A stretch of DNA of 64,000 nt from an uncultured Clostridia bacterium (GCA_928721565.1 OV788638.1:1666-65665); one strand, 5' to 3'; counted from the first letter of the stretch, positions 3,592 through 49,508 are shown. Notes: generated by a model not told the origin, from the sequence alone. Numbers and translations are program-made.

Positions 3592-4893
3592 TTAATTTTT
3601 TTGACATATTAATTCGTCTCTTACCTTTTCTATTTCTTCTACACTAGCACCAGTTAATTGTTCTATTGTATCATATGTTAATTGTATTCTTAGCATTCTT
3701 ATAATTACTTCTTTTAATGTCTCTCTTTTCGCTTCTTTTATTGCCTTTTCTTCTTTTTCTTCTTTCTCTTTAATTTTCGCTTCTGCTTTATTTAGTTTAG
3801 CCTCCATCTCATCTGCTCTCGCTACTGCTTTATCAGCCATTTCTATAGCTTCGTTTCTATTCGCTTCTGCCTCATTAAACCAATCTCTTACTCTTTCCTG
3901 AATCGTACTCATATTATCTTCCTCCTTTTCTTCAATGATACTTATAATTTTTTTCAAATCATTTACTTCTATTTTTTCATATAAATATTTTAATAATTCT
4001 CTCACTTCTTCTAGTTCTGTTTTAGTAATTGAACTATTTATTATTTTATTAAAACATTCAAATAACTCTTTTGGATTTTTACACTTTTCTAGAACCATTG
4101 CTTTAGCTAGATTCGTATTTTTTCTTAATAATTCATCAATTTCAAATTCATTTATATCAATTACTTTATACTCTATATCTATTCCTTTTATATAATTTTC
4201 TGGTATTTTTGCCACTTTATCTGAGTACTTAGTAGATACTGACCATTTTCTATTTCCCGTATAAATCACTATTGGTAAAATTAGCGGATATTTGTATTCT
4301 TCATGATGTTTGCTCATATTTTTTATAGCTCTTCTACTTATTTCAATACTATATTCTAGCATTCTAAATGGCATATTATAATCAATTTTTGTTTGATGTT
4401 CTATTAAAAAATAAATATCCTCTTCTTTTACTCTATAAAGTATATCTACTAATTTTTCATTTCCGGATTTAGTAATATATTCCCCATTTTGTAATTCTAA
4501 TTCTCCATTAAAATCACATAAAATAAATTCTTTTATAAATTGTTTCATTTCTTCTTTGTTGTGCAATATTTCTTTAAACATTTTATCATGTTTTTTGTCT
4601 AATATGTATTCTGCTGATTCCTCATTACATTGTAACTCATCTTTAAGACGATATTCTTCTAATTGTCTTTCAACTTCATCTTTTACTCTTTTATATTCTT
4701 CTATTTGTCCTGTTACTAACAAATAATCAGAATATGTAAAAATGTATTTTCGCTCTGGTAATTCGATACTATCTACCTCCTTTTTATTTATTTTTTCAAT
4801 GTTCTTTTCTATTCTACGATTTTTTACTCTGATATAAATAATTTGAATTTTTGAAATAAATTTCTTAACCATACTAAAATAGTACACATCCAT
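3592..4893 (-). CDS. Rpn-family (YhgA-like) recombination-promoting nuclease / putative transposase, with N- and C-terminal extensions
   Basis: The internal segment DKKHDKMFKEIL ... DILYRV ... IYFLIEHQTKIDYNMPFRMLEYSIEI ... PLILPIVIYTG matches the conserved PD-(D/E)XK core of the Rpn/transposase_31 family (HDxxFK, LIEhQs, MPlRMLxY). The true start is uncertain because the ORF begins about 95 aa upstream of the usual family N-terminus. Confidence 0.7.
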   Translation of the reverse strand: MDVYYFSMVKKFISKIQIIYIRVKNRRIEKNIEKINKKEVDSIELPERKYIFTYSDYLLVTGQIEEYKRVKDEVERQLEEYRLKDELQCNEESAEYILDKKHDKMFKEILHNKEEMKQFIKEFILCDFNGELELQNGEYITKSGNEKLVDILYRVKEEDIYFLIEHQTKIDYNMPFRMLEYSIEISRRAIKNMSKHHEEYKYPLILPIVIYTGNRKWSVSTKYSDKVAKIPENYIKGIDIEYKVIDINEFEIDELLRKNTNLAKAMVLEKCKNPKELFECFNKIINSSITKTELEEVRELLKYLYEKIEVNDLKKIISIIEEKEEDNMSTIQERVRDWFNEAEANRNEAIEMADKAVARADEMEAKLNKAEAKIKEKEEKEEKAIKEAKRETLKEVIIRMLRIQLTYDTIEQLTGASVEEIEKVRDELICQKN

Positions 4894-36624: not shown

Positions 36625-37803
36625 TTAATGTTCTGGTTTGCTTAATCCAAGATTCAAAGTTAAACCTTGTCCAAGTGAAGCATAGTTGATACAGTCAGGA
36701 TCTTGACCTTCTATCCATACATATACTCTTACTTTTTGATATTGGTTTGCTATCATTTGAATAGGAGTAGTTCCATCTTTAACACTCATTAAATCTATTG
36801 AATCACTTCTTGTATCAGCTGCAGTTGTTTGAGTTGTATTTTGTTTAGTTAATCCTGCTGCAGGTGTTTTCCAGTCATATACATCTGCTATAGTTCCAGC
36901 TGTTTTTGAAGCTGCTGTTAAAGCATATGTAGGTAATTTTTTTCCATCAGTGAATGGTGATATTCCTGCTGCATTAGCAGTTAATCCATATGTAGTATTA
37001 TCATTAGCTAATAATTTAAGAGAGTTTGCTTTAGAGTTTACTATGTTAGCAACGTGTTCTTCAGCATTTGGTTCCCAAATAGCTACATCTGATATATTTT
37101 TTCCTGTTGATGTTCCTGCTATTATTGCTGCTTGATCTGGTTCTGTTGTTTGACCAATTTTCATTGTCTCTCCTGCATTTTCATATAAAGCAAGTCCAAT
37201 TCTTGCAGTATTTTGAATACCTGTTGCTTCATTTACACCTAATAAATCAGATGTTGCATCTAATTGAAGTTTATCTGAAGTAACTCCTGTTGTTGAAGTA
37301 TTCATCAAATATAAATCAAAAGCAAAATATCCTGAAGCTTTTTCTTCTGCTGCTGTAGCGATTTCTTTTAAACCTGCTGAATCTGTATATTTACCATTAT
37401 ACATTACTAAACCTGTTGTTCCTATTCCTTCATTTGTAGCTCCTGTTGTTGAAACTGGTAAATATTCTGCTGGTACTATATTTGTAATTCCTTCTGCTGG
37501 TGATTGGAATGTTTTTTCATCATCTAAATATGTTGTAGTTGCAGTTGTGCTTACTGTCCAATTGTCTGCATCTGTTTGAACAAAATCATCAAATTTAATT
37601 GAATTTACCCAGTGTTTTGCATCTAGTGAAATTTGCAAACCTTCTGCTACATTTACTTGACCTTTTAGTCCACTTAGCATAACATTTCTCTGTGTAGAGA
37701 ACCATGCATATGTTGATACTATCAATAAGATAGCTGTAAATGCTACTAATAAAATTAAAGCATTTAATCTTTTTCTTGAGTTTCTTTCATTGTTTTCTCT
37801 CAT
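36625..37803 (-). CDS. Secreted protein with a SipW-cognate signal peptide (TasA/camelysin-class substrate), 392 aa
   Basis: N-terminus ...ALILLVAFTAILLIVSTYAWFSTQRNV (YAWF motif). It is Thr/Ala-rich and predicted beta-rich. The C-terminal motif is VYVWIEGQDPDC. Confidence 0.6.
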   Translation of the reverse strand: MRENNERNSRKRLNALILLVAFTAILLIVSTYAWFSTQRNVMLSGLKGQVNVAEGLQISLDAKHWVNSIKFDDFVQTDADNWTVSTTATTTYLDDEKTFQSPAEGITNIVPAEYLPVSTTGATNEGIGTTGLVMYNGKYTDSAGLKEIATAAEEKASGYFAFDLYLMNTSTTGVTSDKLQLDATSDLLGVNEATGIQNTARIGLALYENAGETMKIGQTTEPDQAAIIAGTSTGKNISDVAIWEPNAEEHVANIVNSKANSLKLLANDNTTYGLTANAAGISPFTDGKKLPTYALTAASKTAGTIADVYDWKTPAAGLTKQNTTQTTAADTRSDSIDLMSVKDGTTPIQMIANQYQKVRVYVWIEGQDPDCINYASLGQGLTLNLGLSKPEH

Positions 37804-37964: not shown

Positions 37965-38750
37965 TTATCTTTTGTTTTGTGGAACTTCATCATTTTGCAA
38001 GATATGTTCTTCAGTTAGAGTCATATGCATTTTTATTTCTCCACCTATTAAATCATCTTTGCATTCTGGGTCGTCCCCTTCTACCCAAATAACAACAGTC
38101 CATTTATCAATGTCACCAACTTTGAAGTTCTCTGATAAATCTAGCATTACGGTATCATCATTTTTGAATGCCACTGTATCTGGTTCAGGTTGTCCTGTTT
38201 CTCTGTTGTTTTTTGCGTAAATAACTTTGTTGTCATTTTTGAAAACCATAACTCTGATTGCTTCATCAACATTTTTTACTACATCATCTATTTTTATGGT
38301 TGTCCAATAGTTAATAGTATCTTGCCCCATATTTTCTGCATAAAATGTATATGCTATGTAGTTTCTACCATTATGTGAGCCATCACCTTCGTTGTTTATA
38401 TTTTCTGGTAGCCAGTTAACTGATATATCTGTAAAAAAGTCTATATCTTTTGATCTTAAAAATGTTCTTGTATATTTATTAGTTTGATCTTCGTATATTA
38501 CTAAGCCACTTTCTCTTCCATATTCACTATCAAGTGTTACTGTAAAATTTTCGCCCCTATAAAATATTGATAAGATAATATATATATTTATCAAAAATAT
38601 TACTATTATCCCTAATATTACTCTAAAAGCTATTTGCCTGGTCTTTTTTCTTTTTTCCTTTTTTGCCTTTTCTTCTAATTTTTGACCGGCTGTTGTTTCA
38701 TCAATTTGTTTTTCAAGTGTTTCTTCGTTTTTTGTTGTTTCATTTGCCAT
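37965..38750 (-). CDS. Membrane-anchored protein (type II topology) with a possible SipW-type cleavage region and a C-terminal W-V-E-G-D-D-P-E-C motif
   Basis: A K/E-rich N-terminus, one TM helix (ILGIIVIFLINIYIILSIF), then YRGENF. The C-terminal VVIWVEGDDPEC is paralogous to the motif in the 36625 gene. Confidence 0.5.
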   Translation of the reverse strand: MANETTKNEETLEKQIDETTAGQKLEEKAKKEKRKKTRQIAFRVILGIIVIFLINIYIILSIFYRGENFTVTLDSEYGRESGLVIYEDQTNKYTRTFLRSKDIDFFTDISVNWLPENINNEGDGSHNGRNYIAYTFYAENMGQDTINYWTTIKIDDVVKNVDEAIRVMVFKNDNKVIYAKNNRETGQPEPDTVAFKNDDTVMLDLSENFKVGDIDKWTVVIWVEGDDPECKDDLIGGEIKMHMTLTEEHILQNDEVPQNKR

Positions 38751-38894: not shown

Positions 38895-39593
38895 TTATGT
38901 TGAATCACGTAACATTTCACTGGTTATTTTTACTGTAATTTCTATCGCTTTTGAAATATCATTTTCTTCATTTTGGTAATATGTATATGCATCTTTTCCA
39001 AATTTTGTATCTAATATATCTTTAGCCAAATTTTCGTCATCAGTACCAGCTCCTTGATAAGTCCAATTAACATTAAACTTAACAGATGCTTCTGCATCTG
39101 GAGTTGTATCATCATCTACATATTTGCCATTAATTCTTGCTTTATCATATGTATAACTTACATTAAATGGGTATGTTGTATCATCTGCAAATAAACTTAC
39201 TGTGTTACCATCAGTTTTTATTCCTCCATCAGCTTGTAACTGTGTTAGCACTTCTTTGCCAAAAACTTTTACCGAAGTTATTTCATAACTTATTTTTGAA
39301 CTTGTTGTACTCAAATTACGTATATGTACAGTATCCTCTCTATTAGGCATTCCAGGATACAATTCATCTATGGTAAATGTATAATCTTGATCTAATACTT
39401 CTTTTCCATCAACATAATATGTAACATCCCAAGGGGTTATATCAGCAGTTAACCCCTTTATTTGTACTTGTTGGCTTATATTAAACCAGGCATAGGTATT
39501 TACTATTAATATTACAGAAAATATCATAATTAATCTAACTCTAGACGCAACACTTCGTTTTTTCGCTCGTCTGAATTCACGTAATATATTCAT
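38895..39593 (-). CDS. Secreted protein with a SipW-cognate signal peptide (TasA-class), 232 aa
   Basis: N-terminus ...LIMIFSVILIVNTYAWFNISQQVQ. Confidence 0.6.
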   Translation of the reverse strand: MNILREFRRAKKRSVASRVRLIMIFSVILIVNTYAWFNISQQVQIKGLTADITPWDVTYYVDGKEVLDQDYTFTIDELYPGMPNREDTVHIRNLSTTSSKISYEITSVKVFGKEVLTQLQADGGIKTDGNTVSLFADDTTYPFNVSYTYDKARINGKYVDDDTTPDAEASVKFNVNWTYQGAGTDDENLAKDILDTKFGKDAYTYYQNEENDISKAIEITVKITSEMLRDST

Positions 39594-39624: not shown

Positions 39625-40323
39625 TTATTCATCATCAGTTTCATCATCATCTTCATTTTCTTCTAGTTCCTCATCTTCTTCACTTTCTTCTTCCAAAGAC
39701 TCATCATCATCTGATATTTCTTCTTCAGAATCCTCCTCAACATAAACAGGTTCATTTAGTTGTTGAACTTTTTGCTTTTTTCCACTTCTAAAAGATATAA
39801 ATACATTCAACACTAAAACTGTGATAATTACAAATACAGAATATATGTTAGTTGCCAATTTATACAAAACTGTCAACAATTTTGATTTATATTTAACAAC
39901 TCCATATATTTGATCAGCTTTAATTTGCGGATCTTCAACACTGCTACTGTTTAAACCTTTAGCATGGAAATTTAAATTGCCACTAGCATCAGTTTCTATA
40001 GCAACAACATTATGCATAATTATTTTTCCATTATAGTCCCCATATTTACCAAGATAAACGATATCATCTCCAACTTTAATATTTTTAGGATCTATTTGTT
40101 TACTTATTACAACTTCCCCAACATCATATGCAGGCTCCATACTTCCTGTAATTACTCTAAACATTCTGTATCCAGCAACAGATCTATTACTGTCTGTAAT
40201 TTTTTGTAATATAATAACTGCTGCTAATATCAAGCATAATATAACAAGTATTTGATATAATATCTTTAATATTATTTTAATTACCTTCTTGGAATCTTTC
40301 CTTTGCTTAATATTATTTTCCAT
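39625..40323 (-). CDS. sipW: SipW-type (archaeal/ER-type, S26B) signal peptidase I paralog 1, with a poly-acidic C-terminal tail
   Basis: One N-terminal TM helix, then the Ser box ITGSMEP, the His box IMHNVV, AKGLNSSSVEDP in place of the canonical KGDNN, a C-terminal TM helix, and then about 45 residues rich in E/D/S. Confidence 0.75.
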   Translation of the reverse strand: MENNIKQRKDSKKVIKIILKILYQILVILCLILAAVIILQKITDSNRSVAGYRMFRVITGSMEPAYDVGEVVISKQIDPKNIKVGDDIVYLGKYGDYNGKIIMHNVVAIETDASGNLNFHAKGLNSSSVEDPQIKADQIYGVVKYKSKLLTVLYKLATNIYSVFVIITVLVLNVFISFRSGKKQKVQQLNEPVYVEEDSEEEISDDDESLEEESEEDEELEENEDDDETDDE

Positions 40324-40337
40324 AATTCTTACCTCTT

Positions 40338-40946
40338 TTATATATTGTAATTATCTCTAAGCTTTTTAATCTCATATTTTTTTCTTTTTATTTTTCTGTT
40401 ATTTTTTTGGTTATCTCTAAAATTCATTAAGAAATAAACAATAATAACAAAAATAAAAATATTAATAAACCCCCTAACGTTTTGTATATAATGAACTACT
40501 TTTCCCAATTTAGGGACAGTGCATAATACTTTACCATAAATATTTTTGCTTTCCACTAAATCTTTATCTTGAACTTCATTGTTATCACCTTTAGTAATAA
40601 ACCTAACATCTCCCTTTTCATCTGTACTTTTTACTATTCTATGTGAAATCACCCTGTTTTCCTGTTTAAATGTTATAATATCACCTATTTGCAAATCACT
40701 AATTTTGCACTTTTTAACAATTGCCAAATCATCTTTATAAAACGTAGGCTCCATACTTTCAGAAATTATATTAAACATATATATTCCCAAAATATGTGTA
40801 TTTTCTTCAAATGACAAAATTAGATTTATTATAAAAAGTACTATTAAGATTACAAGTATTATACACTTAAAAATTTTTCTTGTCACTTTTTTATTTCTAA
40901 TTTTACTAGAAATTTTTTCAACATCATATTCCAATTTTGCTCTCAC
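40338..40946 (-). CDS. sipW: SipW-type signal peptidase I paralog 2, with a basic C-terminal tail
   Basis: ISESMEP (Ser), ISHRIV (His), ITKGDNNE (Asp) and a C-terminal TM helix, followed by a K/R-rich tail. Confidence 0.8.
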   Translation of the reverse strand: MRAKLEYDVEKISSKIRNKKVTRKIFKCIILVILIVLFIINLILSFEENTHILGIYMFNIISESMEPTFYKDDLAIVKKCKISDLQIGDIITFKQENRVISHRIVKSTDEKGDVRFITKGDNNEVQDKDLVESKNIYGKVLCTVPKLGKVVHYIQNVRGFINIFIFVIIVYFLMNFRDNQKNNRKIKRKKYEIKKLRDNYNI

Positions 40947-40968: not shown

Positions 40969-42585
40969 TTACTTTTTAAGCATTTCTTTTACAGTTGTAA
41001 TATATTCTAAATCTTCAATAGAATATTTGCTTTTTTTAATATTATTATAATTACTTATAATTTTAACTTTTTTAATTAAGTCTTCTATATTATCCTCTTG
41101 AAAATTCTCTTTAGAAACTTGCATTCCAAATAATTTATATTTGTCTTTAATTATAACAGCCAACTCTTTGGTATCACTAATTTTTATATAATTTATAACT
41201 GAAAAGTTAGAAAAATTAATAAAATCTCTAATCTTTTTAGCAGTTTGTCCAATTTCTTTATCTGTTATTTCCTCATTTTTCTTTATCATTGCTTTAGCCA
41301 TAAACCAATAATAGTTGCTTGCAAGTTTTAATACATCTAATAATGATGAAGTTTCATCTATATTTTCTACTATTTTCTTCTTCAAAATTTCTTCATCTAA
41401 TTTCATATAAGCCTTTTTTAATTCTAATATCAAATTATTTCTTTGCAAAATAGATGCACTATCTTTTTTATTATTCTTCTTTTTTCCAAAAAGTCCCATT
41501 TTAGGCTTATCTATTTTTCCATTCAATTTAAAAATTTCAGACTTTAATTTCTTAATATTCTCTCTAGTCAAATCATATTCTGTTTTTTTAACTTTTTTAT
41601 TTTTATTTTCTTCAATCTTTTTTAGTTCCTCATCTTTAATTTGTAATATTTCATCAACTAAAAATTTATATTCAGAATATTTAGCATACTCATCTAAATT
41701 AGCATTCAATTTTTCAATGTTTTCATCCATCTCAGCTTTTTCAAGATCTGACATTTTTGAAACTTCTTTAGAAGTCAACTCAAGATATATCTTTTGATAA
41801 TTATCGCCTTTATAATCATTTATATTTAAAGCTCCTGTATAAAATTTATCAAGTATAATCTTATTATCTGTTGCTTCAATAGATTTCTTTTTCTTAATCA
41901 GCTCTGATTTCTTCTCCTCAACACCATCTGTTGTTAACTTAAATTCTTTTAAAATCTCCTCTGACTTATTCTCATAAAATTTATCAATTTCATTTTCATA
42001 TTTATCATAAATATATCTAATATTCGCATACAAATGTGCTACAACATCAGAACATTCCCAATAAACCTTTTCAAAAGTATTTTTAATTTTTTCAGAGTTG
42101 ATATTTCCATCATAAGCCTCTTGCAACAAAACAATCATATATTTTTTAGAATATTCACTTATATCAAAATCATTTTCATTTAACTTAATTCCCACATTCT
42201 CAAACTGTTTAACACAATCAATTAACTCTTTATTTAATCTCTCCAAATTACTTTTGTAATATCCATTTATATTATATGTAGCTCGATCAAGCCCCATTTT
42301 TTCAAATGATGAACGAGTATCAGTATTTTTTACAGCAACATCATATCTCATAATTTCTGTTTCAATCTGAGGAATTTCTTGATTCTCCTCAACAGCAGTG
42401 AGTTCGTTGAATCTGGTTTCTATTTCTTTTAATAGCATTTCATTTACTTCATCATATTTATCAGTCATATCTTTTATTGTCTGTGCTAAAGTTTTTATAG
42501 CTTTAATCCCATTTCTTGGCAAAACTGAAATAACTTCTTTATCTGTTGTTATTTGTTTTTCTACATTTTCAACTAATTCTTTCAT
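40969..42585 (-). CDS. Hypothetical 538-aa coiled-coil protein (no recognisable domain)
   Basis: Lys/Glu-rich, predicted helical, no TM or signal peptide. It lies inside the SipW locus. Confidence 0.45.
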   Translation of the reverse strand: MKELVENVEKQITTDKEVISVLPRNGIKAIKTLAQTIKDMTDKYDEVNEMLLKEIETRFNELTAVEENQEIPQIETEIMRYDVAVKNTDTRSSFEKMGLDRATYNINGYYKSNLERLNKELIDCVKQFENVGIKLNENDFDISEYSKKYMIVLLQEAYDGNINSEKIKNTFEKVYWECSDVVAHLYANIRYIYDKYENEIDKFYENKSEEILKEFKLTTDGVEEKKSELIKKKKSIEATDNKIILDKFYTGALNINDYKGDNYQKIYLELTSKEVSKMSDLEKAEMDENIEKLNANLDEYAKYSEYKFLVDEILQIKDEELKKIEENKNKKVKKTEYDLTRENIKKLKSEIFKLNGKIDKPKMGLFGKKKNNKKDSASILQRNNLILELKKAYMKLDEEILKKKIVENIDETSSLLDVLKLASNYYWFMAKAMIKKNEEITDKEIGQTAKKIRDFINFSNFSVINYIKISDTKELAVIIKDKYKLFGMQVSKENFQEDNIEDLIKKVKIISNYNNIKKSKYSIEDLEYITTVKEMLKK

Positions 42586-42755
42586 GAATTTTCCTCCTCT
42601 AATTTCTTAACCGTATCATATTCGCTATTTAAAAACTTTAAAAAACTTTCAACTTGTTTTTGGACATCCAATAATTCTCTATTTTCTAATTTTGATGTTT
42701 TTATATTTTTTATTTCCATTAAAACTCACTCCCTATCTTATTTTTTTATAAGTAA

Positions 42756-43403
42756 TTATACTGTACTATCTGGTATATATTGATTAAATTTCATAGTTGC
42801 TCTATATTTTAAAGTTGTATGTAAATCATTTGAATCACTATTAGTCTCTCCTCTGAACTGAGTATCTTCTTTATTATTCATTGTATTTTTATCTCCATCA
42901 TTCCATCTAAACAAAACCCTAATCTCACGTTTTTTCTCTCCAGCACTATTAACATCAGTATCTGGATCAATTACTCCTGTTATTGTATTTGTCTCAGTTA
43001 TAGTAGAAGTATCTCCATCAATCACTTCATAACCATAAATCTCAAAATCAGTTAGTTTTGTAGTATTTAATTGCTCTATAGAAAAATCATACTCAAAAGC
43101 CACATCAACATAAGTATAATCTATTAACATTTCAAAATAACCCTCTCGTCCCGGAACCAAAGTATTATTACTATTCATATTTTCATTTTCAACAAATATT
43201 GGTTGCATAACTTCAGTAAGAGATGATTCTTCATGTATAGTGTGATCATTTACCTTAATCAACCATCTTTTAATATGTGTATCGTAAGTAGTATCAACTT
43301 TTTCAAAATATCTAGCATATGTTCTTTGTATTGATATAATAGTAATAAGTAAAGAAATAATGCATAATATTTGTAAAGCTCTTAATTTAGTTTTCTTTTT
43401 CAT
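42756..43403 (-). CDS. Secreted protein with a SipW-cognate-like signal (TasA-class), 215 aa
   Basis: N-terminus ...ILCIISLLITIISIQRTYARYFEKVDT. It overlaps the downstream sipW paralog by 4 nt. Confidence 0.55.
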   Translation of the reverse strand: MKKKTKLRALQILCIISLLITIISIQRTYARYFEKVDTTYDTHIKRWLIKVNDHTIHEESSLTEVMQPIFVENENMNSNNTLVPGREGYFEMLIDYTYVDVAFEYDFSIEQLNTTKLTDFEIYGYEVIDGDTSTITETNTITGVIDPDTDVNSAGEKKREIRVLFRWNDGDKNTMNNKEDTQFRGETNSDSNDLHTTLKYRATMKFNQYIPDSTV

Positions 43404-43975
43404 CTACTTTCCCTTTCATATCTATCTTGTCTTTCTCTAAAAATTCTAAATCCTATATATATAGATAATGGTACTATTGCTCCAAAATAAAATACATATT
43501 TATTATTTAGCAATCTACAAATAAATGACAAAATGTACATTTTACTTTGAACCACTCCATTTATTTGATGTGCATATACAACAGGATCTTCTAAGTTATT
43601 AGCAATACCCTGAGTATGAAAAACTCTTTGTCCATCAATTTCTTCAATATCTTTTACTCTATGTGTTACCAAAATTCCATTTACAGCCCCAGTTTCACCT
43701 TGATATGTTACATCTTCACCGACCTGTATTTTATTAGTATCTGTTTCTTTTACTAAAATAACATCACCAACTTGGTATTTAGGAATCATACTTCCTGTTT
43801 GAACTCTAAAAATTCTATATCCAAAAAATGATTGTTTATTATTTGTTACTTTTTGTATAACTATTACTATACAAATTAAAATAATTATAGCAGTTATTAT
43901 CTTTGATATCACTTTCCATGCAATATGTAATATTTTCTTTATCTGGTCATTTGGGACCGGTTCTCTTTTGTCCAT
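43400..43975 (-). CDS. sipW: SipW-type signal peptidase I paralog 3; the first 10 codons, including the ATG, are encoded by a palindromic repeat unit
   Basis: VQTGSMIP (Ser), VTHRV (His), QGIANNLEDP. The N-terminus MDKREPVPNDQ is the translation of a GAACCGGTCC unit (43944-43975). Confidence 0.75.
   Translation of the reverse strand: MDKREPVPNDQIKKILHIAWKVISKIITAIIILICIVIVIQKVTNNKQSFFGYRIFRVQTGSMIPKYQVGDVILVKETDTNKIQVGEDVTYQGETGAVNGILVTHRVKDIEEIDGQRVFHTQGIANNLEDPVVYAHQINGVVQSKMYILSFICRLLNNKYVFYFGAIVPLSIYIGFRIFRERQDRYERESR
43944..43975. repeat. Single palindromic repeat unit that forms the 5' end of the sipW paralog 3 ORF
   Basis: On the minus strand, ATGGACAAAAGAGAACCGGTCCCAAATGACCAG, which sits two nucleotides downstream of the preceding gene's stop codon. 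Confidence 0.8.
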
Positions 43976-43977
43976 TT

Positions 43978-45102
43978 TTATTTTAACCTCACTTCTTTTA
44001 CTCTTCCCATATATTTATCTATTCTTTCTTTAAATTTATCTTCAATAGGTTTTAAAGAAATCAATTTTCTAGTTTTCATAACTATCAATTTGTCTGCAAT
44101 CATCTGTTTTAACTCTTTATCTGACATTTCAGGATTAAGTTCAATTATCCTCTCTATCAAATTATCTGTCAATTCTTTTCTTGCCTTTTTATCCTCTAGC
44201 GCACTCTTTTTTTGTCCCTTCATTTTTTCTTCAAGATTATTGTTTTTAAAAATCAAATGCATTAGATACATATTTTCATCAACTAATTTTTTTGCTACTC
44301 CTTTTTCCTCATAAGTTTTGTTTGACTTTACAGACTTATCTTTTATTTCTAATTGATCACTCAAATAATTCCATAATTTTACTGCATATTGAAAATGTAC
44401 ATTTTTTAACAATACATTAGTCATTTTTAAAGGAGATTTAACAAGTGTAACTCGCTTAGCTTGTAATAATTGATATACATTAGTTGCTTTAAGGTCTTTT
44501 ATCTGCTTTTTTATTGCCTGAATTCTTTCTGCTGTTCCAGCAGATTTTTTAACACCTATGTTACTTTCTGTTGAATAGTTAAAATTAACTTTTATTTTTT
44601 CTTTTTTGTATTTAATTTCTGCTTCATAATCTGCTTTTTGCTCATTTTTACCTTTATATTCAGTTTGTTCATCTTTTTCACGTAAATACATATAATCTTC
44701 AATCAATTTTATAAGACTGTATAAAAATCTATTTTCATATGTAATAAATGTTTCTTCTTTATAAGCATTTAATATCTTTTTAGGTATAACTTCTCCTGTA
44801 TTTTGGTTAAATCTATCAACATAATTTACATTTTTAGACAAATGTTTTACACTTTCCACAGTTACTTTTTTGATTAATTCTATTTTAATTATCTCTTCTT
44901 CTGTAACAATATTCTTTATTTCCTTTGTTAAAGCCCTTTCTATATGTGGAAGTGAAAATTCAAGCATATCAATCCATTCATCATTTTCAACAATTTGACT
45001 CTTATTAACATCTAGCATTAATTTTGAATCAACTTTGCTAAGAAATTCCTGTGATGACTGTCCACTCTCCATATTGGCAAGTTTCATTACATTTAAGTCC
45101 AT
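43978..45102 (-). CDS. Hypothetical 374-aa protein, candidate McrC-N-terminal/DUF2357-like partner of the adjacent McrB-like NTPase (no nuclease motif seen)
   Basis: Its position is immediately downstream of the McrB-like gene. The internal TYENRFLYSL segment is reminiscent of DUF2357. No PD-(D/E)xK motif is visible in the C-terminal third. Confidence 0.35.
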   Translation of the reverse strand: MDLNVMKLANMESGQSSQEFLSKVDSKLMLDVNKSQIVENDEWIDMLEFSLPHIERALTKEIKNIVTEEEIIKIELIKKVTVESVKHLSKNVNYVDRFNQNTGEVIPKKILNAYKEETFITYENRFLYSLIKLIEDYMYLREKDEQTEYKGKNEQKADYEAEIKYKKEKIKVNFNYSTESNIGVKKSAGTAERIQAIKKQIKDLKATNVYQLLQAKRVTLVKSPLKMTNVLLKNVHFQYAVKLWNYLSDQLEIKDKSVKSNKTYEEKGVAKKLVDENMYLMHLIFKNNNLEEKMKGQKKSALEDKKARKELTDNLIERIIELNPEMSDKELKQMIADKLIVMKTRKLISLKPIEDKFKERIDKYMGRVKEVRLK

Positions 45103-45128
45103 TTACTTTTTCTATCCTTTCCAAATTA

Positions 45129-46682
45129 TTATGACATTTTCTTCAATCTTAATAAAAATTCTGTACATTCAGCCATTTTTCCTTTTCCAAAATTCTTATC
45201 CAAAAACTCTATATACCCATCAATTTCATCTCTAATTAAAGCTAAGTTAAGAGCTTCAAATTTTCTTAAAACTTTTTTAGCCATAAAATAATCTACAGCC
45301 TCAGTTTCATCTCCACCGCAAGCTACATAAACAGGTACGAATTTTCTCATATGTTTTACAATACGGTTACCAAAAGCAACTCTAAAGTGTTTTATTGTAT
45401 AGTTATCCATATCATCAATTTTCTTTAAAGTAGCTGGTGATATGGCATAATCAACCATTGCTTTTTCAAATAAGCCATTTAAGTATGAATAATTTACATC
45501 AATAGCATCTACATCATCTGGTTCAAATGCAATACCTTTTTCATTTATATCTATAGGCATAGCTCTATCATATACCTTATCTGTTACCATGAAAGTAGAA
45601 TCATCATTATTGATTGTTCCTATGTACCAAGCATTTGGTGGAATTTGCAATTTTCCTCTCATTAACTTCTTTGGATCTGTTGGCCATGAACTTTGTACAA
45701 CTTCAATCTTCCAATCTTTTGTACTATGCATTTCTAGAATTGACAACATTTCTGCAAAATAGTACTCAACACGTGCCAAGTTCATCTCGTCCAAAATTAC
45801 TGTAAATATCTCATCTGTATATCCTGCTTCATACAAATATGCTAAAAAATCTGTTTCATTAAACTTCTTTGTAAATTCATTTAAATATCCAAATATATCT
45901 GTTCTATCTCTCCAAGAGGGCTGTACAGAAGCAACACAAGATGGATGTTTTACAAAGTTACCCCATGCAAGAGATATAGATGTTTTACCAGTACCAGAAA
46001 TACCCTGTAATATAACTAATTTGGTTGATGCAATTGCTGATACAAACAATCTTATCATTTTCTCACTATAATATAATTTTAATTTGCTTGCAGCAAAATT
46101 TCTAAACATATAACAAAACTCTGGTAATGAAAAACTATCATGATAATCTTTTTGTTTATATTTTGCATATTCTTGATCTATTAAAGTCAACTTAGAAAAT
46201 CTGCTTTGACTACTAGGATCAATCTGTTCTTCATTATTAGCTTGTGATTGAGCTGCTGCTAATGCTGCCTTATCTGCACCAGTACTTATTCCATTTGGGT
46301 TTACACCTAATTCTGGAGTTTTCATAGATAATAATTTCAACTTTTCATCAACCAGTTCTTCAACTTGATCATTTAAAGTATCAATCTGTTTTAACAATTC
46401 TTCTTGGTCAATAATCTTCTTTCTCCACTTCATATGTCTTTTTAAAAACATTGCTATTATACCAATAATTCCACCAATAACTACAATCATACAAATAATA
46501 GCTAAACCTGTTAAAAACCACTCTGACATTTTAAAATCATTTGCATAACTTTGAATTATATAATAATATTCAGGAATATTAAAAATACTAAATATTCCCT
46601 TTCTTAATCCTCCAAATATCTCTCCAAATCCAGAAAAGAATTGGTGTAAAAATTCAAATAAAAATCTTCCGTATGTTTCCAT
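45129..46682 (-). CDS. Membrane-anchored McrB-like AAA+ (AAA_5) GTPase/ATPase
   Basis: An N-terminal TM helix (WFLTGLAIICMIVVIGGIIGIIAMFL) and a coiled-coil linker are followed by Walker A LQGISGTGKTS and an McrB-type Walker B/sensor VILDEMNLARVEYYFAEMLSILE (compare McrB IIDEINRAN..FGE). Confidence 0.6.
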   Translation of the reverse strand: METYGRFLFEFLHQFFSGFGEIFGGLRKGIFSIFNIPEYYYIIQSYANDFKMSEWFLTGLAIICMIVVIGGIIGIIAMFLKRHMKWRKKIIDQEELLKQIDTLNDQVEELVDEKLKLLSMKTPELGVNPNGISTGADKAALAAAQSQANNEEQIDPSSQSRFSKLTLIDQEYAKYKQKDYHDSFSLPEFCYMFRNFAASKLKLYYSEKMIRLFVSAIASTKLVILQGISGTGKTSISLAWGNFVKHPSCVASVQPSWRDRTDIFGYLNEFTKKFNETDFLAYLYEAGYTDEIFTVILDEMNLARVEYYFAEMLSILEMHSTKDWKIEVVQSSWPTDPKKLMRGKLQIPPNAWYIGTINNDDSTFMVTDKVYDRAMPIDINEKGIAFEPDDVDAIDVNYSYLNGLFEKAMVDYAISPATLKKIDDMDNYTIKHFRVAFGNRIVKHMRKFVPVYVACGGDETEAVDYFMAKKVLRKFEALNLALIRDEIDGYIEFLDKNFGKGKMAECTEFLLRLKKMS

Positions 46683-46728: not shown

Positions 46729-47772
46729 CTATTGAAAAATAACATTACTTAATGAATTATCTTTCTTTAATTCTTTGTATAATACTAATTCTTTTGGCGC
46801 TATAACTAATTTAAACATCTTTAATTTTTCTACATCCTCAACACTTTTTACTAAATCATCTAATGTAATGACAAAATTATAACCTAATTTAGTATAATCA
46901 AGTACACTCTTTTGATTTTTAATATAATCTGAATATTTAATATTCAGATTAATTTTTTCTTGTAAAGCCTGATTACTAATTAACGCTAGAATACTATTCA
47001 TTTTTTGTTTTTTCTTAAATAAAGAACTTGTAAATTCCGCTATGTAAGAATCTTTAAAATTACCATTTATAATATCTCTTATTGAAACTACACTCAACAA
47101 AATATACTCAATTTGTAGTTTATCTTCTGCAATAATTCCTTCTTCAAAAACTTTTTCTATTGCAGATTCACTATACTGCATTGGCATTCTAACATCATGT
47201 TCTAAACTCACATAATAAACATCTTCTGAAAAATCTGTATTTTCAAATTTTAGTGCAAATTCATCTGTTTCAAATTTTTCTAAAAAAACATCTTTTTCTA
47301 TCATATCACTATTAACTTCTTTATAAAGTTTATTTTCAGCATCTTGTGGTACTTTAATATTTAATGAAGAACTAACTAACTCAAAAATTTTTTCAACAAT
47401 TTCTTTTACACTATCAATTGTTTTAAAATTTTCAACATTTCTTACATTATCAAAAAATAATACATAACCAAAAACTTCTTTTATAATATGAATTAAATTC
47501 AATTTAGCTTGTTTTTCATCTAATGACTCAGATTCTTCTTCACATTTTTCCATCAAGATATCCTCTTTGTATTCGAGCTCATCTAATATTCTTAAATAAA
47601 ATGCTCTAGCAGGCTTATCTGTATTTTTAATATTATAATATCTAGCATTTATATATGTTCTTAAATACTCATTTACCAAGTCTTCATCATAATATGTGCT
47701 AAATATTATCTTCATATATTTTTTGATTTTTTTCTCTGTAAAATTCAAATATGTGTCCATTAAATTGTTCAT
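46729..47772 (-). CDS. Hypothetical 347-aa cytoplasmic protein
   Basis: No recognisable domain. It is co-oriented and tightly spaced within the SipW locus. Confidence 0.45.
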   Translation of the reverse strand: MNNLMDTYLNFTEKKIKKYMKIIFSTYYDEDLVNEYLRTYINARYYNIKNTDKPARAFYLRILDELEYKEDILMEKCEEESESLDEKQAKLNLIHIIKEVFGYVLFFDNVRNVENFKTIDSVKEIVEKIFELVSSSLNIKVPQDAENKLYKEVNSDMIEKDVFLEKFETDEFALKFENTDFSEDVYYVSLEHDVRMPMQYSESAIEKVFEEGIIAEDKLQIEYILLSVVSIRDIINGNFKDSYIAEFTSSLFKKKQKMNSILALISNQALQEKINLNIKYSDYIKNQKSVLDYTKLGYNFVITLDDLVKSVEDVEKLKMFKLVIAPKELVLYKELKKDNSLSNVIFQ

Positions 47773-47787: not shown

Positions 47788-48375
47788 TTATTCAATTATC
47801 TGTTTAGCATTCAAATCTAATTTTATGTATTCAATCAAATCTGAATATTCTGCATTTGTATCATTAGCCTTTGGAAATGTTACTTTTATAACAAAGTTAT
47901 CAGTAATATCTGTCCCTTGATTCATCTGATCTGCATCTAATGATATTCTTCTATAATATGTTCCGTCATCATCTGTAATTATCTCTTGCTTTGCATTAAG
48001 AATTGTTCCATTTTTAACTATTTGATATTCTAATGGTAAATTTGTTGTAGTTTTTAATACAATTTCATACTCCAAATCAGTTTCTGCCCTTTTGCTTATA
48101 GTACCATCATCTTCTTTTTTAAAGTTTGATACTGAAAATGTATAATCAAAAGAATCATTTGAAGGATATATATCTTTTATTAAAATTGTTCCAGATTTAA
48201 AATCATTATCTAATATCCAAAATGCAACATCTACATCTTTATCAGATTTAGCAGTAGTTTCATATCTTGCCAGTGTCCTTCTTAATAAAATAATTGCTAT
48301 AATTATTATTGCTATTAAAATAAGTACTATAAGACTCTTTTTTATCTTTTTTTTATCAAACATCTTTTTCCTCAC
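47788..48375 (-). CDS. Secreted protein with a SipW-cognate-like signal (TasA-class), 195 aa
   Basis: N-terminus ...LILIAIIIIAIILLRRTLARYETTAKSD. It overlaps the downstream sipW paralog by 20 nt. Confidence 0.55.
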   Translation of the reverse strand: MRKKMFDKKKIKKSLIVLILIAIIIIAIILLRRTLARYETTAKSDKDVDVAFWILDNDFKSGTILIKDIYPSNDSFDYTFSVSNFKKEDDGTISKRAETDLEYEIVLKTTTNLPLEYQIVKNGTILNAKQEIITDDDGTYYRRISLDADQMNQGTDITDNFVIKVTFPKANDTNAEYSDLIEYIKLDLNAKQIIE

Positions 48376-48889
48376 CTATTTTTTCTTTATATGAAACTAG
48401 TAGTATAAATAAGATAACTGTTATACTAATTGGTATTATTACATGCATATCTGAAAATACTTTTTTCCAAACCTCAACATTATTTATAATTGCAACTTCT
48501 TTTCCTATAATCTCATTTTTAGTTATAGGCTCATCTTCTGTATTATTATAATCACCTTTTGTTATTATAGTATCTCCATCTATACTTACTATTCTATGTG
48601 TAATTAACACATTGTCCTTTTTGTATGTTATAATATCATTTTCCTTTATTTCATCACCTATTTTGATTATTACAATATCACCTTTTTCCATTGTTGGTGA
48701 CATACTTCCAGTTTCTGTGCTAAATACTGAATAGCCAAAAATATCAATATACTCTTTATTTTGCACATTTAATTGTACCAAACCCCATATTACAATAATA
48801 GCAATGATACTTAATACTAATATTATCAAATTAACTATAACTTTTTTTATAACCTCAAATATTTTATTATGTTCCATTGCCAATTCCAT
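48356..48889 (-). CDS. sipW: SipW-type signal peptidase I paralog 4
   Basis: TETGSMSP (Ser), ITHRIV (His), ITKGDYNN (Asp) and a C-terminal TM helix. Confidence 0.8.
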   Translation of the reverse strand: MELAMEHNKIFEVIKKVIVNLIILVLSIIAIIVIWGLVQLNVQNKEYIDIFGYSVFSTETGSMSPTMEKGDIVIIKIGDEIKENDIITYKKDNVLITHRIVSIDGDTIITKGDYNNTEDEPITKNEIIGKEVAIINNVEVWKKVFSDMHVIIPISITVILFILLVSYKEKIGEEKDV

Positions 48890-49508
48890 CTCCTGTATAT
48901 TGTTTCAAATTTATTTCTAATGGTATAGATATTTTAGCATCAACAGTTTCTCCTAATTCTGAATCACTAGCATTATTTCCCTCATCATTTTCCCACTCAA
49001 AATATAATTTTAGGTGGTTTAAATACTTGTCATTTATTTTTGATATTGGTATTAGTGCTTGATGTTCATGTAAATCTATATTTGTATTTACATCTGCATT
49101 AGTAATTTGTTCTGTTTCACCATCTTTTTGAAAATAATTTTCTACTTTAACTAATTTCATCTTTGCTTTTGTTATATCATCAAACTTCATATTAAGTGTA
49201 TACATAATAGAAACATCTGTATTGGTTGGATCTATTATTATATCAAAACATGCCTGAGTTCCAGGTGCTATTTTTTGACTCTTAACATGATTAGAATCAA
49301 TATATGTAAGATTGTCTTCTGTCATGTTAAAAGTCAAATTTTCGTCACCTGAAGAAATGTCTGAGCCATTTACTTTTATTGCCCATACACCTAATAAATC
49401 TGTATAATCTCCTTGTAGCTGATCTTTGTATAATGCATACATTCTAGCTATTTGGAACAAAGATATAATTAACATTATTAATACTAAAATTCTTAATAAT
49501 TTCTTCAT
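48867..49508 (-). CDS. Secreted protein with a SipW-cognate-like signal (TasA-class), 213 aa
   Basis: N-terminus ...LVLIMLIISLFQIARMYALYKDQLQG. It overlaps sipW paralog 4 by 23 nt. Confidence 0.55.
   Translation of the reverse strand: MKKLLRILVLIMLIISLFQIARMYALYKDQLQGDYTDLLGVWAIKVNGSDISSGDENLTFNMTEDNLTYIDSNHVKSQKIAPGTQACFDIIIDPTNTDVSIMYTLNMKFDDITKAKMKLVKVENYFQKDGETEQITNADVNTNIDLHEHQALIPISKINDKYLNHLKLYFEWENDEGNNASDSELGETVDAKISIPLEINLKQYTGDGIGNGT

Follow-up and report, generated by a model that had tools for sequence, protein, structure and literature searches.

A predicted membrane-anchored McrBC-type gene pair lacking a nuclease active site and coupled to SipW-type signal peptidases in an uncultured Clostridia bacterium

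McrBC is the textbook DNA-restriction motor. The 64,000-nucleotide (nt) stretch of an uncultured Clostridia bacterium analysed here (GCA_928721565.1 OV788638.1:1666-65665; hereafter the window, with positions counted from its first letter) carries a member of a widespread McrBC branch that appears to be membrane-anchored, to have lost its nuclease and to be wired to signal peptidases. It is encoded by two neighbouring open reading frames (ORFs) for a McrB-like protein of 517 amino acids (aa) and a McrC-like partner of 374 aa, both of which lie on the strand and at the coordinates given by an earlier interpretation made from the DNA alone (the sequence-only reading). As judged from its domain make-up, the pair is a CoCoPALM-type McrBC derivative, and nothing that we found contradicts this membership. 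CoCoPALM was named by Bell, Koonin and colleagues (eLife 2024; PMC11090510) in three sentences and deferred to a later paper. Thus, the architecture is not new; the class is already known and named, it is wholly uncharacterised, and the present account is one of comparative inference. The pair and its parts, including the transmembrane (TM) helix, are arranged as follows.

45129..46682, minus strand: McrB-like GTPase of 517 aa, CoCoPALM-type, NxD clade (ORF, phmmer, PADLOC, invariant residues)
46518..46682, minus strand: amphipathic, glycine-rich N-terminal segment, residues 1-55 (alignment, Kyte-Doolittle)
46443..46514, minus strand: predicted TM helix, residues ~57-80 (Kyte-Doolittle 19-residue mean of 3.05)
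46317..46421, minus strand: short leucine-zipper-like coiled-coil stalk of ~35 residues, ~88-122 (PDB profile search)
45132..46199, minus strand: McrB-family AAA+ GTPase domain with its conserved lead-in, residues ~162-517 (phmmer, alignment)
43978..45102, minus strand: McrC-like partner of 374 aa, without a nuclease active site (ORF, DUF2357)
44584..44970, minus strand: DUF2357 (McrC N-terminal domain), residues 45-173 (Pfam, 37.2 bits against a cut-off of 23.3)
43996..44298, minus strand: C-terminal helical, coiled-coil-like region, residues ~269-369 (AlphaFold2 helices 269-286, 301-322 and 328-369)

The N-terminal 160 residues of the 517-aa protein comprise the amphipathic segment, the TM helix, the coiled coil and a low-complexity linker. 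Within the amphipathic segment, F7, G18, G29, F34 and Y39 are kept in at least 90% of the sequences (alignment A7); its best Kyte-Doolittle window reaches just 0.87, at a place where relatives have a true first TM helix. The helix at residues 57-80 is kept in all relatives with one TM helix. The net charge flanking it is -1 before and +3 after, and the basic stretch KRHMKWRKK directly C-terminal to it would place the GTPase in the cytoplasm. When the A7 profile was compared with PDB sequences, positions 78-120 matched coiled coils only (designed coiled coils, NEMO, geminin and GCN4), and L97, E99, L103, N104, L110 and E113 of the coil are conserved. Helix and coil together are conserved in 25 orthologues, in line with the earlier suggestion that a TM helix and a coiled coil take the place of the DNA-binding domain.

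The motifs of the GTPase domain comprise Walker A (residues 227-234), Walker B (D298-E299), the NxD motif (N358-D360) and R373. The two stretches quoted in the sequence-only reading as a McrB-type P-loop and a Walker B/sensor signature are found at residues 225-235 (LQGISGTGKTS) and 295-317 (VILDEMNLARVEYYFAEMLSILE), respectively. In an alignment of 18 sequences representing all four architectures of the family (alignment A1), K233, D298, N358, D360, S362, T363, R373 and R440 are invariant, and E299 is present in at least 90%. The signature loop (residues 357-363) reads INNDDST, its counterpart in E. coli McrB being MNTADRS; it corresponds to a shortened NxD motif with a second acidic residue after it, the form by which the clade is defined in PMC11090510, the next residue being D, E or Q in alignment A1.

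Support from general profiles, which the sequence-only reading had anticipated for AAA_5 and McrB, was obtained only in part. Neither Pfam AAA_5 nor the NCBIfam McrB model matched the 517-aa protein at E<=0.1, an outcome that technically triggers a condition which that reading had set for its own refutation. Homology to McrB is established instead by a phmmer match to E. coli McrB 6hz4 (E=1.1e-4 over residues 203-375, 173 residues in all), which covers Walker A, a QxxSY-like segment, Walker B and the signature loop; by the PADLOC model PDC-M26A (8.6e-36, 121.7 bits, residues 202-321 against profile positions 314-434 of 724); by relatives at 30-45% identity that exceed the Pfam AAA_5 gathering score; and by the invariant catalytic residues. 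Taken together, this evidence identifies the 517-aa protein as a predicted McrB-family GTPase of the NxD clade, with intact active-site residues and a membrane tether.

The 374-aa partner had been described as having a DUF2357-like stretch and no visible PD-(D/E)xK nuclease, and both points hold. Its DUF2357 region contains a loop with invariant K109 and L111 and a helix with Y122-E123-N124 (YENRF); PF09823 is present in 120 of the 120 best homologues, some of which NCBI labels 'DUF2357 domain-containing protein'. A D...(D/E)xK triad is conserved in neither the 16- nor the 56-orthologue set, and the nuclease is therefore predicted to be absent or dead. The AlphaFold2 model of the partner (predicted local distance difference test, pLDDT, of 73) displays an N-terminal alpha/beta region, the YENRF helix, a long beta-hairpin and a helical C-terminal third, the loop at 107-116 that carries K109 and L111 being of low confidence in this monomer model. 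The C-terminal region takes other forms elsewhere in the family, namely a helix of ~400 residues rich in lysine, glutamate, alanine and arginine in Clostridia-type loci and a zinc ribbon in loci of the type with four TM helices. PDB sequence and profile searches with the partner returned no McrC match, only coiled-coil noise, and a Foldseek search with the model returned nothing, so that the fold evidence for the partner is modest. On its domain and motif content, the 374-aa protein is a McrC homologue that retains the DUF2357 domain and lacks a nuclease active site.

The two genes are separated by 26 nt, and each is preceded by a purine-rich ribosome-binding site; only 2 nt separate the 374-aa gene from a paralog of the signal peptidase SipW, and gene gaps throughout the locus span 2-46 nt. 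The locus encodes five SipW-like proteins in total, together with a protein, X347, directly upstream of the McrB-like gene.

43400..43975, minus strand: SipW-type (archaeal/ER-type) signal peptidase I paralog of 191 aa (TIGR02228, 79.4 bits against 51.85; TGSMIP serine motif, His105)
48356..48889, minus strand: SipW-type paralog of 177 aa (TIGR02228, 69.6 bits; Peptidase_S24 and S26 above gathering)
49512..50315, minus strand: divergent SipW-like paralog of 267 aa with a T/K-rich tail (TIGR02228, 35.9 bits, below the cut-off; SipW_Bacil, 4.5e-11)
40338..40946, minus strand: SipW-type paralog of 202 aa (TIGR02228, 109 bits)
39625..40323, minus strand: SipW-type paralog of 232 aa with an acidic tail (TIGR02228, 61.6 bits)
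46729..47772, minus strand: X347, predicted cytoplasmic protein of 347 aa (no TM helix)

The TIGR02228 cut-off is passed by four of the five paralogs, and the serine motif and a histidine are present in all five. The pair itself is flanked by the paralogs at 43400-43975 and 48356-48889, on an ordinary stretch of chromosome, as the sequence-only reading had it when it placed the pair between SipW paralogs and outside any defence island. As a separate observation, the divergent 267-aa paralog carries DDSLEP where TGSMEP would stand, a candidate histidine 54 residues past the serine and a long C-terminal tail rich in threonine, lysine and alanine. X347 gave no match in Pfam, NCBIfam, PADLOC or the PDB.

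Two kinds of gene fusion link these proteins. In nine loci (L056, L058, L061, L064, L066, L068, L070, L071 and L073), X347 follows the second TM helix of SipW in a C-terminal fusion, giving proteins of 633-756 aa encoded directly upstream of the McrB-like gene. Furthermore, a single ORF of 998 aa in a Ruminococcus metagenome-assembled genome (MAG; L087:9828-12821) joins the McrC-like protein to SipW in the order McrC-like protein, charged coil of ~450 residues, TM helix, SipW catalytic domain (TGSMEP...THRIV), second TM helix and charged tail. The topology is coherent in both kinds, with the X347 and McrC-like domains predicted in the cytoplasm and the peptidase domain outside. That the pair works with SipW, and not merely beside it, is best supported by these fusions, which also name SipW, X347 and the McrC-like protein as likely physical partners. 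The pair is coupled genomically, and in some lineages physically by fusion, to SipW, X347 and exported proteins, the last of which are represented in the window by the following genes.

36625..37803, minus strand: T392, predicted exported beta-sandwich protein with a signal-anchor and STYA|WF site and a C-terminal W.EGQDPDC; conserved core partner
37965..38750, minus strand: Y261, predicted single-pass membrane protein (TM 44-62); cytoplasmic tail charged, outer domain terminating in W.EGDDPEC; conserved core partner
38895..39593, minus strand: T232, small, predicted exported protein with an NTYA|WF signal site
42756..43403, minus strand: T215, small, predicted exported protein with an RTYA|RY signal site
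47788..48375, minus strand: T195, small, predicted exported protein with an RTLA|RY signal site
48867..49508, minus strand: T213, small, predicted exported protein with an RMYA|LY signal site

The N-termini of T392, T232, T215, T195 and T213 consist of a basic stretch, a hydrophobic helix, T-(Y/L)-A and then (W/R/L)-(F/Y), an arrangement that fits the -3/-1 rule. The T-x-A site followed by an aromatic residue resembles the cleavage site of TasA. The T proteins are so predicted to be exported, with SipW-like signal ends. The predicted cut in T392 lies after A33; A33, W34 and F35 are invariant in the T392 family, as is the C-terminal R.Y.W.EGQD.DC, which is common to Y261; Y261 is found in both Bacilli- and Clostridia-type loci. 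The shared motif W.EG(Q/D)DP(D/E)C is strictly conserved, with one invariant cysteine, and might serve in metal binding or cross-linking. No close solved relative of the T392 fold was found, although the model is confident. A TasA-like identity is not claimed for the exported proteins, since nothing beyond a generic beta-sandwich resemblance was obtained.

A HMMER search of 1.84 billion representatives recovered 8242 members of the McrB-like family at E<=1e-3, 735 of them at E<=1e-30. Among the best 150 of the 8242, four architectures share the same GTPase core: one TM helix and ~500 aa (the type of the 517-aa protein), two TM helices, four TM helices and ~560-700 aa, and soluble proteins of 700-870 aa with long coiled coils. 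At least 593 stretches matched when a single genome per species was scanned, and in uncultured Bacillota from human and animal guts the system is common. The best 80 of these stretches, at 47-95% identity, come from gut and rumen MAGs assigned to Bacilli, Erysipelotrichaceae, Tenericutes, Clostridia, Acutalibacteraceae and Ruminococcus. We then considered the 94 loci flanked by 4 kb or more on each side, a sample of best search hits that is biased and includes some near-duplicates: the McrC-like gene lies directly downstream in 93 of the 94, and a SipW-like gene on the same strand lies within 5 kb in 85. Given the 8242 representatives and the conserved synteny, the two genes are not a chance pair of ORFs.

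Gene order is kept from 95% down to ~47% identity, in MAGs labelled Bacilli and Clostridia. The Bacilli-type order is SipW, T, SipW, T, a ~300-aa protein, X347, McrB, McrC, SipW, T232, Y261 and T392, with a lysine/glutamate-rich protein (CC538) and a giant DUF285/PARCEL protein present or not. The Clostridia-type order is Y261, T392, SipW, McrB and a long McrC homologue of 680-1000 aa, the extra length being the helix rich in lysine, glutamate, alanine and arginine mentioned above. Moreover, a metagenome scan starting from relatives with four and two TM helices revealed that, in loci of the four-helix type, a SipW-like gene lies directly upstream of the GTPase gene and a partner of 370-475 aa directly downstream, with small exported proteins carrying GFAAW-type signal ends; the two-helix relatives also keep the SipW link. 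The four-helix partner is invisible to Pfam, and its relation to the 374-aa protein was detected with hhalign (probability 97.8%, E=8.6e-13); the two have in common the YENxF and PTN(I/V)LLK motifs, and the four-helix partner ends in a CPxC...CxxC zinc ribbon. Three loci of this type (L101:5046-17144, L093 and L125) also encode, downstream of the triad, an ABC ATPase, a 530-aa multi-pass protein, an exported protein of ~820 aa and a lipoprotein.

The surroundings of the pair are those of an ordinary chromosomal stretch from a low-GC (~29%) Bacillota genome. The window contains genes for RNase J, GluRS, SerRS, UvrA, PNPase and pyruvate kinase, and all genes from ~36.6 kb to its end are tightly packed on the minus strand. 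It contains no tRNA gene and no compositional break or GC anomaly, and no mobile-element genes lie within 30 kb of the pair. An origin by mobile element or defence island was considered and rejected because tRNA gene, integrase and GC shift are all absent and housekeeping genes flank the locus. The locus is chromosomal, syntenic and non-mobile in context. The sole gene resembling a mobile element seen in the window, a YhgA-like (Transposase_31) gene at 3592-4893 (minus strand), is ~40 kb from the pair.

Comparison with known systems places these features in context. CoCoPALM was described as a large clade whose McrB GTPases are of the NxD type and carry an FtsB-like TM and coiled-coil module by fusion; both subunits have coiled coils, and genes of the signal-peptidase family are associated with the clade (PMC11090510). 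The locus resembles this description in its GTPase, which has an NxD motif followed by D, a TM helix and a coiled coil, in its adjacent McrC homologue with a helical C-terminal ~100 residues, and in its five SipW-like genes. In the literature after PMC11090510 we found no CoCoPALM follow-up, nor any work linking SipW with McrB or DUF2357 with signal peptidases. Added here are the SipW fusions, the conserved partners X347, Y261 and T392, the extension to four-helix relatives with zinc-ribbon partners, and the quantified linkage.

Canonical McrBC (E. coli 6hz4; T. gammatolerans 6ut5) shares with the pair the AAA+ core with Walker A and B, the sensor asparagine and the arginine after the signature, as well as a partner with the McrC N-domain (DUF2357) and the gene order B then C. 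In contrast, the locus GTPase has a membrane anchor in place of the DNA-binding N-domain, its signature is NxD and not NxxD, with serine replacing the arginine of MNTADRS, its McrC-like partner has no PD-(D/E)xK triad, and its setting resembles surface-protein biogenesis and not defence. The tapA-sipW-tasA operon of B. subtilis and sipW-bsaA of C. perfringens likewise place a dedicated SipW-type peptidase beside exported substrates; however, those operons lack an NTPase, whereas the locus combines one with five SipW paralogs. By analogy only, type IV pilus and Tad systems also unite in one operon an NTPase that is hexameric and cytoplasmic, a membrane peptidase of their own and several small subunits whose N-terminal segments are hydrophobic. 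The parts are not homologous: the locus NTPase is of McrB type and not of PilB/VirB11 type, its peptidase is a type I enzyme of the Ser/His kind predicted to cut at the outer face and not an aspartic prepilin peptidase, and its subunits are predicted beta-sandwiches.

Considering these observations together, we think it moderately probable that the pair forms a GTPase module facing the cytoplasm, docked on SipW and acting in the processing or assembly of SipW-dependent surface proteins. This agrees with the proposal of the sequence-only reading that a McrBC-derived NTPase was repurposed for a membrane process such as the export or assembly of neighbouring substrates, a proposal strengthened by the SipW linkage across the one-, two- and four-helix subfamilies and by the fusions. 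McrBC is described as a hexameric ring into which the McrC N-domain is inserted to stimulate the GTPase (Nirwan 2019 and Niu 2020, as cited in PMC11090510), and from this established mechanism a ring and plug are proposed for the pair. Six McrB-like subunits would form a ring under the membrane, held by their stalks; the McrC-like subunit would insert into the ring and stimulate GTP hydrolysis, as in canonical McrBC; and the complex would dock on the cytoplasmic tails of SipW, either directly or via X347. GTP turnover might then power or gate the step by which membrane-anchored precursors are processed, released or polymerised into a surface structure, the proposed precursors being T392, Y261, the small T proteins and perhaps the giant adhesin. 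The overall logic, a cytoplasmic NTPase with a membrane peptidase and subunits, would be that of type IV pili, built from unrelated parts. The partners named by the fusions make the hypothesis directly testable.

A stronger form of this reading is offered only tentatively: CoCoPALM might be a previously unrecognised, NTP-powered machine that assembles surface filaments or a surface layer in monoderm gut bacteria, in which a tethered GTPase ring and its McrC plug sit on SipW and cytoplasmic GTP hydrolysis is coupled mechanically to the cleavage-linked release or polymerisation of beta-sandwich subunits outside the cell, so that the motor of a restriction enzyme would have become one for secretion or assembly. 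If a role in export or assembly is true, the system would clearly exemplify the co-option of a defence motor for cell-surface biogenesis, and its GTPase would be the first NTPase tied to SipW-dependent export, for which Sec and the peptidase are otherwise considered sufficient. Since the loci encode giant adhesins, the system may also shape the gut attachment of these poorly known bacteria.

Several observations weigh against a role in SipW-dependent surface assembly. Nine of the 94 loci have no SipW nearby. Four loci (L072, L082, L083 and L086) encode an X347-like protein, McrB, McrC and a lysine-rich protein with no SipW within 10 kb; this sub-clade sits among rlmN, pknB, rsgA and polC, with proteins bearing ATYAYF-type signals nearby. 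When T392 homologues were used as the starting point, the pair was recovered in two of three look-ups (L168 and L169); the third locus, L170, contains CC538, Y261, T392 and SipW, and no pair is present within 10 kb upstream and 5 kb downstream. Some genomes may have the system divided between two loci, or may be able to do without the pair. Furthermore, we infer the function only from gene neighbourhood and fusions, and ring formation, McrC insertion and GTPase activity would all be carried over from McrBC by analogy. SipW/TasA systems of the B. subtilis type are not known to need an NTPase, and an energy requirement is therefore not obvious. Finally, the closest characterised or predicted relatives within the GTPase clade, namely McrBC, CoCoNuT and PADLOC PDC-M26, are defence systems.

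This last point leads to the main rival, an anti-phage or conflict system in which a tethered McrBC-like sensor-switch would detect infection in the cytoplasm and trigger a membrane or protease effector (the SipW-like or exported proteins), for instance in abortive infection or surface remodelling. The rest of the NxD clade consists of predicted defence systems, both CoCoNuTs and methyltransferase-linked McrBC (PMC11090510). CoCoNuTs (CnuB/CnuC) resemble the pair in their NxD signature, in the coiled coils on B and C and in frequent loss of the McrC nuclease, and soluble relatives with long coiled coils are found among the homologues of the 517-aa protein. However, CoCoNuTs are soluble, possess additional nucleases, helicases or HEPN proteins and are predicted to act in RNA-targeting defence, those without a McrC nuclease reportedly always carrying another nuclease (PMC11090510), whereas the locus GTPase is predicted to be membrane-tethered and Pfam scans of 20 locus proteins detected no nuclease, HEPN, helicase or methyltransferase. 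The core of the GTPase does match the subunit A model of the PADLOC candidate PDC-M26; this was the single match when four locus proteins (the 517-aa and 374-aa proteins, X347 and CC538) were scanned, and it is partial, covering ~120 of 724 profile positions, while the other three match no PADLOC model. We found no publication on PDC-M26. Moreover, the locus is syntenic across genera and lies among housekeeping genes, away from mobile elements, and five signal peptidases, many exported beta-sandwich proteins and a giant repeat adhesin give it the look of a surface-structure operon. We therefore regard a defence function as unlikely.

Less probable still is a role in the divisome or cell envelope, in which an FtsB-like TM helix and coiled coil would recruit the GTPase to the division site or to envelope synthesis and the SipW genes would reflect envelope biogenesis in general. 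The FtsB homology of the CoCoPALM N-terminal module was reported on the basis of HHpred (PMC11090510), a single TM helix with a leucine-zipper-like coil fits FtsB/DivIC, and the sub-clade lacking SipW is located among housekeeping genes. Against this, the N-terminus of the 517-aa protein gave no FtsB/DivIC match in Pfam at E<=0.1 and no FtsB chain at E<=10 in the PDB profile search, no division genes are consistently adjacent, the two- and four-helix relatives keep the SipW link despite a different membrane module, and the SipW fusions indicate the peptidase as the partner. It is hardly credible that an independent McrBC-like module, of a type generally regarded as mobile and able to land anywhere, was inserted by chance and without functional link into a surface-protein operon, since the adjacency is kept in at least 85 loci, over several subfamilies and down to ~30% identity, neighbouring genes lie only 2-46 nt apart, and two kinds of SipW fusion exist. 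A GTPase module docked on SipW is the most probable of these readings.

Three further genes of the locus complete the inventory.

40969..42585, minus strand: CC538, lysine/glutamate-rich, helical, predicted cytoplasmic protein of 538 aa, a frequent locus member (no TM helix; homologues in many loci)
42582..42719, minus strand: ORF of 45 aa (MEIKNIKTSKLENRELL...) overlapping the start of CC538 by 4 nt
51922..63969, minus strand: giant DUF285/PARCEL-repeat surface protein of at least 4015 aa (frame open to the window end)

CC538 gave no match in Pfam, NCBIfam, PADLOC or the PDB. A gene is called at the position of the 45-aa ORF in relatives, with 45 aa in L001-L005 and L170 and 40 aa in L168, which suggests that the ORF encodes a real, translationally coupled micro-protein. 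The frame of the giant protein is open to the end of the window, and its N-terminus therefore lies outside; its homologues have 4622-5009 aa, and in Bacilli-type loci it often lies upstream. Between it and the divergent SipW paralog, an ORF of 112 aa (51501-51839) and one of 153 aa (50963-51424), both on the minus strand, represent two frames of a single gene of ~300-310 aa. In a tblastn search for this ~300-aa gene, residues 1-108 were found in one frame and 136-289 in another, the gene being intact in other loci. The same split is present in the closest relatives (L001-L003 and L008), and it would therefore reflect a programmed shift or else a frameshift or pseudogene that was inherited.

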